Assembly (NCBI RefSeq): GCF_003019035.1
Contig: NZ_CP027447.1
DNA length: 64,000 nucleotides
Reading direction: 5' to 3' (one strand)
Source: Escherichia coli
GTDB taxonomy: Bacteria; Pseudomonadota; Gammaproteobacteria; Enterobacterales; Enterobacteriaceae
In this document: piece after piece, positions 25,848 to 59,173 of the stretch
How the letters are laid out: the number at the start of each line of letters is the position of its first letter
Numbering within the stretch: position 1 is the stretch's first letter
The notes under the pieces: generated by a model
The model's database searches: none
The model's input: only the letters and a program-made list of their open reading frames with translations
What the model was told of the DNA's origin: nothing
Translations under genes and position numbers: made by a program

Positions 25848-26012
25848 GCCTTATCTCCACCTCTTCGCGTCATTACGCGATATTCATTAAAGTGGCGAAA
25901 GCATGACAGCAATCACAAAAAAATGAAAATAACAAAAAGAGAAAACACTTTTGCCATTTTGCTAACAAACAGGAAGGAGATGCGAGGGAGAGCGCGCTCC
26001 CTCGAGAGGAAA

Positions 26013-26102
26013 TCAGTGCAGCGCGGCAGTCAAACCCACGGCCACGATCAAACCGAGGACGATAATCGTTGTTACCAGTGAAAATTTAAGGTCGGTGCTC
26101 AT
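26013..26102 (-). CDS. ynhF: small membrane protein YnhF (29 aa)
   Basis: Minus-strand translation MSTDLKFSLVTTIIVLGLIVAVGLTAALH; below the track length cut-off, found by hand. Confidence 0.6.
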   Translation of the reverse strand: MSTDLKFSLVTTIIVLGLIVAVGLTAALH

Positions 26103-26400
26103 CAAGTTTTCTCCTTTTTTATTACCACACAAAAAGTGATATTACGCATTTTTACACACTGTGATGAAAAAATCTCCCGTCATTTATAATGATAAGTGTT
26201 TTTACCACTTCCCCTTTTCGTCAAGATCGGCCAAAATTCCACGCTTACACTATTTGCGTACTGGCCATTGACCCCTTCCTGACGCTCCGTGTCGTTTTTC
26301 CGGCGTACCGCAACACTTTTGTTGTGCGTAAGGTGTGTAAAGGCAAACGTTTACCTTGCGATTTTGCAGGAGCTGAAGTTAGGGTCTGGAGTGAAATGGA

Positions 26401-34991: not shown

Positions 34992-35068
34992 GCGTTCATA
35001 GCTCAGTTGGTTAGAGCACCACCTTGACATGGTGGGGGTCGTTGGTTCGAGTCCAATTGAACGCACCA
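34992..35068 (+). tRNA. valV: tRNA-Val (anticodon GAC)
   Basis: 77-nt cloverleaf GCGTTCATAGCTCAGTTGGTTAGAGC...TTCGAGTCC...ACGCACCA. Confidence 0.93.
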
Positions 35069-35072
35069 TCCT

Positions 35073-35149
35073 GCGTCCGTAGCTCAGTTGGTTAGAGCAC
35101 CACCTTGACATGGTGGGGGTCGGTGGTTCGAGTCCACTCGGACGCACCA
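35073..35149 (+). tRNA. valW: tRNA-Val (anticodon GAC)
   Basis: Second near-identical 77-nt tRNA 4 nt downstream, ending CCA. Confidence 0.93.
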
Positions 35150-35257
35150 GATTTTCTTAATCTGGTCTTCTCATTTTTTCCCTCTGTTTCTTCTCTGTAT
35201 CCAATACGTTAAAAGATTTACACTGTATTCGTATGCGTTATCAGAAGGAGAATCGCT

Positions 35258-35563
35258 ATGGCAACTTTGTTACAACTTCATTTTTCTTTCAATGGCCCAT
35301 TTGGCGACGCAATGGCTGAGCAGCTTAAACCGCTTGCTGAGTCGATTAATCAGGAACCTGGTTTTCTGTGGAAGGTATGGACAGAAAGTGAAAAGAACCA
35401 CGAAGCCGGTGGGATCTACCTTTTTACTGATGAAAAAAGCGCCCTTGCCTATCTGGAAAAACATACTGCCCGACTGAAAAATCTCGGCGTTAAGGAAGTT
35501 GTCGCCAAAGTTTTCGATGTCAATGAGCCACTGAGTCAAATCAATCAGGCAAAACTCGCCTGA
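35258..35563 (+). CDS. ydhR: putative monooxygenase YdhR
   Basis: 101 aa. Confidence 0.88.
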
Positions 35564-52577: not shown

Positions 52578-52946
52578 CTATACCCCAAAGCTTTCGCCAC
52601 AGCCACATTCATTCTGGGCTTTAGGGTTGTGAAATTTGAATATCTGATTAAGTCCTTCACGAACGAAATCGACTTCCGTGCCATCAATAAACGGCATCGC
52701 TTGCAGCGGGACAAACAGCTTCGCGCCGTCGTGTTCAAACAGCAGATCGTCTTTGTCCGGCTCGCTAACACTGTCGAGCACATAGCCAAAGCCCGCGCAG
52801 CCCGTTTGCTTCACGCCTAAGCGCACGCCGACCATACCCGGCTGCTTTGCCACCAGCTCGCGGATGTGGACAGCGGCTGCGGGTGTCAGCGTTAAGCCCT
52901 GCCAGGCGAAATCCTGTGGATTAAAGGTTCCTGAATGCATGTCCAT
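52578..52946 (-). CDS. sufA: Fe-S cluster A-type carrier SufA
   Basis: 122 aa, C-terminal CGCGESF. Confidence 0.95.
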
Positions 52947-53224
52947 CGATTTACCTCACTTCATCGCTTTCAGCGTATAACAGCATGTTAGTGATAATGA
53001 TTATCAGTTCAACCCAGCAAACGCAGGGGCTTTACCGTAAAACATGCTTTTTTCCTGCTTTTAATAAGCATAGACCCTGATGTGTGGGTTAACAGGCACG
53101 CTAAGAATTAGGTATCTCATTGTTAGATAATGATTATTATCTAAGGAGCATTAAGGCTGTGATGAAAAAGAAAAAGTTGTATTGAAAATGACTATTTAAG
53201 AGATAGGTAAAAAAGTGCAGCGTT

Positions 53225-53295
53225 CAGAAATAAGAAAACCCTTAAGTCTGTGCGACACAGGCTTAAGGGTTTCTACCCCATCCGGCGCTTATCTC
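53225..53295 (-). ncRNA. rydB: candidate small RNA (RydB position) ending in a minus-strand intrinsic terminator
   Basis: 16-bp near-perfect hairpin (53237-53271) followed, on the minus strand, by a U-rich tract; RydB is recalled to lie between sufA and ydiH. Boundaries are approximate and the sequence identity is not verified. Confidence 0.3.
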
Positions 53296-53494
53296 CGGCA
53301 CTCTCAGTGGCTTAGCTCTTGAAGGGGCGATAAGAATAATCTCATAAAGCTAACCCGCCGTTTTAACACAAACTGCGATTAGTATTATTTTTGAACAATA
53401 TCAGGCGGGTAGATAAGCAGTATTAAGAAGGTCATCGAACCTGGACGGAGGTTAATCCAGGTCGATTTGGCGAAATTGCGGCATTAAGTCAGGA

Positions 53495-53683
53495 TCAATG
53501 CACGCCCAGACGCCAGGCAAAGTAGATTTCTTCTTTTAATTCAGCAGAAGAGAGAGTAAGCAGGTCAGCAAATTCAAGTTCTAGTTGTTTCAGACGTTTG
53601 AGATATTGGGCAGGTGAAAGATTGCTCTGGTCACGGCGTAAAAATTCAATGGCCAGCTGGGTGGGATCAAGTTGAGTAGACAT
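53495..53683 (-). CDS. ydiH: small protein YdiH (62 aa)
   Basis: Start MSTQLDPTQLAIEFLRR; track ORF extends upstream. Confidence 0.8.
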   Translation of the reverse strand: MSTQLDPTQLAIEFLRRDQSNLSPAQYLKRLKQLELEFADLLTLSSAELKEEIYFAWRLGVH

Positions 53684-53782
53684 AGCATCCTCGCTTTTAG
53701 ACAAGACCTGCACAGTATACCACCGTTTACTGTGCAGATAATGACCAAAAGCAATATGCGTCACACTTTTCTGGTGACAACG

Positions 53783-54193
53783 TCACAAAATGGCGGTCGT
53801 TAATCGTGACGAACAGCACAAACGCCCTTTCTCATCGAAGATTTCAATCTGCCAGACCTGGTGACGCGAACCGAGATGCAACGGTTTGCATACGCCGCGC
53901 ACCCGCCCTTCTCGTGCCGAGCGGACGTGGTTAGCATTGATTTCCAGACCAACCACCTTTTGCTCACCTTCGGTACATAAATAGCCGGCAACGGAACCGA
54001 TACTTTCGGCCAGCACCACAGACGCGCCTCCATGCAGCAACCCGAAAGGCTGCTTTGTCCGGGAGTCTACTGGCATTGTCGCTTCAAGGGTGTCATCACC
54101 AATATGTTCAAAGCGAATATCCAGCAACCCCACCATGTTTCCTTCACCCATAGCATTCAATGCTTCCAGGGTGATTTTTCGTTTCCATATCAT
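53783..54193 (-). CDS. menI: 1,4-dihydroxy-2-naphthoyl-CoA thioesterase (hotdog fold)
   Basis: 136 aa PaaI-like. Confidence 0.92.
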   Translation of the reverse strand: MIWKRKITLEALNAMGEGNMVGLLDIRFEHIGDDTLEATMPVDSRTKQPFGLLHGGASVVLAESIGSVAGYLCTEGEQKVVGLEINANHVRSAREGRVRGVCKPLHLGSRHQVWQIEIFDEKGRLCCSSRLTTAIL

Positions 54194-58930: not shown

Positions 58931-59036
58931 ACGGTTATAAATCAACATATTGATTTATAAGCATGGAAATCCCCTGAGTGAAACAACGAATTGCTGTGTG
59001 TAGTCTTTGCCCATCTCCCACGATGGGCTTTTTTTT
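58931..59036 (+). ncRNA. rprA: small regulatory RNA RprA
   Basis: acggttataaatcaacatattgatttataagcatggaaatcccctgagtg...cccatctcccacgatgggcttttttt matches recalled RprA including its terminator. Confidence 0.88.
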
Positions 59037-59173
59037 AACATTTTTCCGCTTCGCTACCTCGCCCCTCACGCTTTCCAATAATGTTGCACAAGATACTGTG
59101 ACTCTCTTCAAGCCGTCAGCAGGCTGATAATGTTATTTATATTTTATTGTTTATTTCATGCAGCCATTACACG

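Follow-up and report, generated by a model that had tools for sequence, protein, structure and literature searches.

The long hairpin that lies between ydiH and sufA in a 64,000-nucleotide stretch of Escherichia coli DNA (contig NZ_CP027447.1; hereafter, the window) is probably the Rho-independent terminator of the small RNA gene rydB, serving also as a backstop for transcription that reads through from ydiH, and appears to be removed from the RNA afterwards. Its anatomy, its orientation, its covariation and its invariable linkage to rydB make a conserved Rho-independent terminator the best reading of this hairpin, and the abundant mature RydB, of about 61 nt, is without it. The functional rydB unit extends from about 53376 to 53226 and consists of a promoter, the mature RNA of 61 nt and the terminator that the mature RNA lacks. 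The rydB locus is an already known gene, and its terminator is a known kind of element.

Identity and genomic context of rydB

The local genes ydiJ, menI, ydiH (53495-53683), sufA (52578-52946) and sufB all lie on the minus strand, with a 548-nt gap between ydiH and sufA. Of 5426 complete E. coli genomes, 5421 contain the segment spanning 52900-53800, and several match it with 100% identity. As the earlier note on this DNA had claimed, the hairpin is more than 200 nt from the end of any coding sequence: the stop codon of ydiH begins at 53495, 222 nt upstream of the hairpin region, and the start codon of sufA is at 52946, 280 nt downstream of it.

When the whole window was searched with cmscan, Rfam family RF00118 (rydB) was detected on the minus strand at 53328-53268, scoring 81.6 bits against a gathering score of 50 (E = 9e-18) and covering model positions 1-61 of 61. 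A permissive Rfam scan of 53000-53800 returned no other significant or credible family beside rydB. Two features represent the gene:

53268..53328, minus strand: mature RydB RNA, 61 nt, equal to the RF00118 match (cmscan and Term-seq 3' end)
53273..53340, minus strand: equivalent of the K-12 MG1655 rydB gene (b4430, 68 nt; NC_000913.3 1764713-1764780, pairwise alignment)

Pairwise alignment of K-12 with the window gave 100% identity across both the rydB gene and the hairpin, and the K-12 gene (RydB is also known as tpe7 and IS082) sits between ydiH and sufA, so that sequence and synteny (ydiH - rydB - sufA) are the same in the two. The earlier note had suggested RydB on the basis of its location, and had proposed to check the name by alignment to the annotated gene, by an Rfam scan and against existing transcript data. 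The name is borne out: b4430 maps here with an identical sequence, RF00118 matches over its full model, and in MG1655, whose sequence here is identical, published Term-seq and TRS studies have assigned 3' ends to rydB. The interval given for the element, 53225-53295, does contain the hairpin, but most of the RydB gene lies upstream of it and the two overlap only at 53268-53295.

The annotated K-12 feature starts 12 nt upstream of the Rfam start, within the predicted -10 hexamer, and ends 5 nt short of the 3' end mapped by Term-seq. The hairpin starts exactly at the end of this feature, and lies outside both it and the Rfam rydB model. In the PGAP annotation of a strain that is 100% identical, rydB is missing, and PGAP-annotated E. 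coli genomes omit the gene.

Coding readings of the region were rejected, as the hairpin is covered by no ORF other than one of 35 aa on the plus strand that starts with GTG, and the AUG-GGG-UAG triplets of RydB are not kept as a reading frame across orthologues. The size of RydB on Northern blots is reportedly about 60 nt, and the RNA is said to have an effect on rpoS. Persister phenotypes and effects of CRP or ppGpp have been reported in the RydB literature, its function is poorly defined, and it is classed as Hfq-independent in a published listing.

Several other structured elements were encountered in the window. The menI-ydiH intergenic region (53685-53785, minus strand) contains a very stable long hairpin, with a folding energy of -45.2 kcal/mol for 101 nt (z = -7.0), formed by an inverted repeat (53693-53720 and 53725-53752) whose 3' side abuts the ydiH ribosome-binding site, GAGGA, at 53688-53692. 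This hairpin could be a terminator, an attenuator or a translational control element for ydiH; a weak Rfam match to 'mir-1278' at the same place was discarded, as it reflects hairpin shape only. Further Rfam matches in the window are situated at 26010-26400 (minus strand), 58931-59038 (plus strand), 34992-35146 (plus strand) and 35111-35274 (minus strand). The window's matches include STnc550 (396 bits), two tRNAs, and RprA (118.5 bits), which retains its terminator in the classical way; the best-matching part of a match to 'HPnc0260 antisense RNA' overlaps the second tRNA on the opposite strand, and this match is probably driven by the tRNA sequence.

Structure and uniqueness of the hairpin

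The hairpin and the tract that follows it are positioned as follows:

53235..53273, minus strand: terminator hairpin (5' arm 53273-53256, loop 53255-53253, 3' arm 53252-53235)
53226..53238, minus strand: U-rich tract UUUUCUUAUUUCU, after the last G-C pair (read from sequence)

A repeat search recovered 53236-53252 and 53256-53272 as an inverted repeat, with 17-nt arms that are 94% complementary and a 3-nt spacer. Folded with RNAfold as minus-strand RNA, 53272-53256 pairs with 53252-53236 through 16 Watson-Crick pairs, with an internal C·A mismatch at 53261/53247 (RydB nt 68 and 82), a G·U pair that may form at the end of the stem (53273/53235) and a loop of UCG (53255-53253). The hairpin alone has a folding energy of -21.4 kcal/mol on this strand, with z = -6.2 relative to dinucleotide shuffles. 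CCC and GGG face each other close to the hairpin base and are followed by UUUUCUUA, with 6 U in 8 bases, which provides both the stable G-C-closed stem and the U-rich tract of a terminator. Within UUUUCUUAUUUCU, where 6 U likewise fall among the first 8 bases, the first three or four U also have potential pairing partners at the stem base, in the run A57-A59 (and in G56, as a G·U). One property speaks against the terminator reading: the E. coli U-tract is interrupted.

Only one hairpin with 17-nt arms, at most one mismatch and a loop of 3-8 nt was found in the 64-kb window by a custom scan, and the same scan found none of this quality in 30 dinucleotide-preserving shuffles of the window. Repeat search, RNAfold and window scan all agree with the near-perfect 16-bp minus-strand stem and U-rich tract that the earlier note had described at this place. 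A simple terminator scan did not flag the rydB hairpin; most likely, this reflects a limitation of a scan that needs an uninterrupted stem, with the internal mismatch to blame, and is no evidence against the hairpin. Across E. coli the hairpin is present at a single place per genome (median 1) in 5420 of 5426 genomes, and the variants within the species, one that changes the loop and one that breaks the stem, are uninformative.

Because the C·A on the RydB strand turns into a G·U on the other strand, the plus-strand RNA version of the hairpin is slightly more stable (-25.2 vs. -21.4 kcal/mol). Among 30 orthologues, 12 favor the sense strand and 17 the antisense strand; given the lack of a consistent bias, stability cannot decide the strand of the hairpin, so that its orientation is assigned from the presence of the T-tract on one side only and from the direction of rydB.

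The element shares with canonical Rho-independent terminators of sRNAs (e.g., that of RprA in the same window) a covarying stem-loop and a U-tract placed right after a short non-coding gene. It differs from them in that its stem is unusually long (17 bp) and AU-rich at the middle, its U-tract is interrupted, and the whole structure is absent from the mature RNA.

Conservation across the Enterobacteriaceae

With YdiH as the probe, 78 loci were gathered from the Enterobacteriaceae, one per species. The RydB core (nt 1-53) is present in Escherichia, Salmonella, most Citrobacter, Pseudenterobacter and one Leclercia MAG; among these 78 loci it was not found in Enterobacter, Lelliottia, Kluyvera, Kosakonia or Trabulsiella. 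In every one of the fetched core-bearing loci (29 of 29), a long hairpin and a T-rich tail come directly after the closing GGGG of the core. A covariance model of the core plus hairpin produced full-length matches of 93-120 bits in the window and in 29 of the 78 ydiH loci (30 of 79 sources), and with this model we detected no cores without the hairpin and no full-length matches elsewhere among the 79 sources.

Compensatory changes occur in 12 of the 18 stem pairs among 29 distinct sequences, with 91.8% of cells paired, and the number of shuffles that reached any observed covariation measure was 0 of 500. When the partners were slid by 1-3 columns, pairing over the whole modelled structure dropped from 94.8% to 29-56%. 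At five loci (L013, L016, L025, L017 and L030), stems of unrelated sequence occupy the same position (e.g., GCGAACGGUCAGCGCUG...CAGCGCUGACCGUUCG), and some of those in Citrobacter are entirely different. The length of the hairpin loop varies from 3 to 8 nt across orthologues, and the T-tract is kept on one side only: T-rich tails, mostly UUUUUU, lie 3' of the hairpin in nearly all orthologues, with weaker tails in the divergent Citrobacter versions (e.g., UUGGUUAU). These comparisons indicate that it is the structure, rather than the sequence, of the hairpin that is conserved.

Of the 29 distinct sequences, 14 lack a pair (C·A, C·C or A·C) at the mid-stem position 53261/53247, and most others have U-A or G-C there. 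This recurrent imperfection corresponds to a G·U wobble in the opposite strand and may have a bearing on processing.

Gene order around the element also varies. In many Citrobacter, an insert of about 1.8 kb separates ydiH from rydB, leaving rydB and the hairpin about 290 nt upstream of sufA; in Salmonella diarizonae, by contrast, the gene and its hairpin adjoin ydiH, and extra DNA between the hairpin and sufA places sufA 1.8 kb away. Such arrangements indicate that rydB and the hairpin move as one block. The insert in Citrobacter werkmanii (locus L008, 2757-4606) and in other Citrobacter carries a 304-aa minus-strand ORF, which is MBL-fold-like, and a divergent 324-aa LysR-type regulator, these ORF identities being judged by eye from the translations.

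The predicted rydB promoter

Two conserved elements precede the gene:

53360..53376, minus strand: conserved upstream block CGCAgTTTGTGTTAAAA (alignment of the 60 nt upstream of RydB, 30 loci)
53336..53344, minus strand: predicted extended -10 element TGaGATTAT (invariant positions in 30 loci)

The block at 53376-53360 (CGCAnTTTGTGTTAAAA) is kept even though the intervening and flanking sequences, and even the upstream gene, differ among loci, and it is possibly a -35 region, an UP element or a regulator site of the rydB promoter. In the second element, TGnGAnnnT at 53344-53336, all 30 loci share the TG as well as A and T at hexamer positions 2 and 6, respectively, and the other hexamer positions vary. 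This pattern is the signature of an extended -10 promoter and predicts that rydB starts at about 53328/53329, where the Rfam model also begins. The annotated K-12 start (53340), falling within the -10 hexamer, is probably approximate. The Cappable-seq and ROSE supplements contain no entry for the rydB locus.

A near-palindrome, ATGAGAWTATTCTYAT, at 53329-53345 on the minus strand overlaps the predicted -10 element and start site, and its counterpart in Citrobacter sp. NCU1 (locus L013, 3047-3063) is a perfect 16-mer, ATGAGAATATTCTCAT. This near-palindrome may be an operator for some regulator; because pairing is lost at loci L015 and L023, it is unlikely to function as an RNA hairpin.

The 3' end of mature RydB

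Using Term-seq, Adams et al. (2021) reported a 'primary' rydB 3' end at K-12 position 1764708 on the minus strand under three growth conditions, with scores of 2.2e6 and 4.1e6, where lpp scored 1.8e5 and 0.8e5. Converting the coordinate, and reading the printed -50/+10 sequence in a register checked against the lpp entry, both place this end at window position 53268, which is RydB nt 61, the second C of AAACCC. Measured from the helix that closes the core, the end is 8 nt downstream; it falls 5 nt within the hairpin's 5' arm and coincides with the last base of the Rfam model. An independent method, TRS (Nat Commun 2023), located the rydB terminus at 1764698-1764712 with a peak at 1764703/4, corresponding to 53263/4 in the window, and its authors counted only 2 U downstream of the terminus. 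The 3' end at 53268 fits the lengths of the Rfam model (61 nt) and of the K-12 feature (68 nt), and conflicts with a 105-nt annotation in Salmonella.

Neither the Term-seq nor the TRS tables contain a 3' end at the U-tract (K-12 1764666-1764678), and beyond the edge of the TRS interval there are no ends at 17646xx in either; termination at the hairpin was therefore not directly observed. Rapid processing would hide terminated ends at the U-tract. Classical Hfq-dependent sRNAs keep their terminator and U-tail as an Hfq-binding module. The mature RydB RNA, ending at 53268, upstream of both the loop and the U-tract, has no such module. The hairpin that the earlier note had regarded as the terminator of a small RNA has the anatomy, orientation and covariation of one, but it is not retained in the mature molecule.

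The sufA control region

Downstream of the hairpin lies a neighboring element that is outside the rydB unit:

53181..53217, minus strand, motif at 53192-53206: OxyR-like motif CTAT-N7-ATAG in the upstream control region of sufA (read from sequence)

This motif recurs 3' of the hairpin in Escherichia and in some Citrobacter, and the hairpin ends about 10-20 nt before it. The exact OxyR footprint at sufA is taken as the one reported by Lee et al. (2004). Activation of sufABCDSE by OxyR and IHF has been stated in the literature.

In Intestinirhabdus alba (locus L019, 2842-2875), there is no RydB, yet an ordinary terminator (AACCCCG...CGGGGTTTTTT) is present and is followed by an OxyR-like GAAATAGGCATTTTCTAT motif, showing that a terminator at the ydiH-sufA boundary exists independently of RydB. 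Because an OxyR-like motif lies near the hairpin and a terminator is kept without RydB, a second role for the hairpin, that of shielding the suf promoter, which is under tight control, from a highly active promoter upstream, is plausible.

Discussion

If the hairpin were part of the functional RydB, the gene would specify an sRNA of about 100-105 nt that, like classical Hfq-binding sRNAs, retains its terminator and U-tail. Such an RNA would be compatible with the view taken in the earlier note and with the 'RIT' call of RepRanger, and the annotated length of rydB in Salmonella (105 nt) and the constant association of hairpin and core could both be cited in its favor. We nevertheless regard a retained hairpin as very unlikely: the dominant 3' end in both Term-seq and TRS is at RydB nt 61-66, within the 5' arm, with none at the U-tract; the Rfam model ends at the same base and the K-12 annotation is only 68 nt long; and RydB is classed as Hfq-independent. 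The same lack of 3' ends at the U-tract could indicate instead that the hairpin is unneeded for RydB biogenesis and mainly insulates sufA from ydiH and rydB transcription, with the 3' end of RydB being made separately, e.g., by cleavage of a nascent or read-through transcript. Intestinirhabdus, in which an ordinary terminator stands before the OxyR-like site and sufA although RydB is missing, and the short distance from the hairpin end to the OxyR-like motif (about 10-20 nt) are both in line with such a role. But in Salmonella diarizonae the hairpin stays with rydB, with sufA 1.8 kb away, and no RydB core was found without a hairpin, making insulation an unlikely account of the element as a whole.

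It is also conceivable that the inverted repeat acts as DNA, either as a symmetric protein-binding site or as a dispersed palindrome such as REP, and not as an RNA structure. Its symmetry would suit a dimeric DNA-binding protein, and the comparison of stability by strand showed no consistent bias. However, the repeat is present as a single copy in 5420 of 5426 E. coli genomes, as opposed to the many copies of a REP element, and a DNA site is difficult to reconcile with a stem that has been wholly replaced in several Citrobacter with its pairing kept, with a loop of 3-8 nt and with a T-tract on one side only. We consider this possibility highly improbable.

Because the mature end lies within the 5' arm and the sequence ahead of it, UAGAAACC, is no terminator tail, the simplest model is that transcription terminates and the hairpin is then removed. 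A Rho-independent terminator is also assigned to rydB in RepRanger. According to the termination-and-removal model, a compact and highly active promoter (extended -10, 53344-53336) would start rydB transcription at about 53328, and RNA polymerase would transcribe the 53-nt conserved core and then the 17-bp hairpin and U-tract, releasing a precursor of about 100 nt at about 53232-53230 (nt 97-100). Transcription would thereby stop about 10 nt ahead of the sufABCDSE control region for OxyR, IHF, IscR and Fur. Removal of the terminator would come next, through an endonucleolytic cut within or close to the stem that may or may not be followed by 3'-to-5' trimming back to the structured core.

A single-stranded tail of 8 nt beyond the final helix is a typical leftover of 3'-to-5' exonucleases. 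A 17-bp stem would normally block these enzymes, which makes endonucleolytic cleavage within or close to the stem likely, and cuts by RNase III at C61/C62 and G90/U91 would be one geometry by which the hairpin could be removed. A stable hairpin of 17 bp normally protects a 3' end, and its efficient removal needs some further mechanism. One possibility, which we advance tentatively and judge to be less probable than not, is that the hairpin is also a conserved maturation signal, with a specific endonuclease cutting the 5' arm at or near C61/C62 to yield the abundant, Hfq-independent 61-nt RNA; RNase III would be the obvious candidate nuclease for a 17-bp stem. The tRNA leuX, the M1 RNA of rnpB and 6S RNA are stable RNAs whose terminators are removed in 3' maturation. 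RydB resembles them in being structured and abundant, in that its terminator is missing from the mature RNA, and in keeping a few unpaired nucleotides 3' of its last helix, a likeness that we offer as a mechanistic analogy. In the text of the paper reporting the RNase III cleavage map, rydB is not mentioned.

These results sharpen the gene model of rydB, in that neither the RefSeq K-12 feature nor the automated PGAP annotation describes the unit of promoter, RNA and terminator. The position of the hairpin directly ahead of the sufA control region suggests insulation of an Fe-S cluster stress operon. That a strong and conserved terminator is paired with a mature end within its own 5' arm poses a small, testable question about the making of a very abundant RNA. 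Loss of the hairpin and U-tail would fit the Hfq-independent class to which RydB has been assigned, and removal of the terminator may explain this behavior. If the hairpin does prove to be a maturation signal, RydB would be matured like a stable RNA, unlike a classical sRNA, and a highly expressed transcript would be kept from titrating Hfq.
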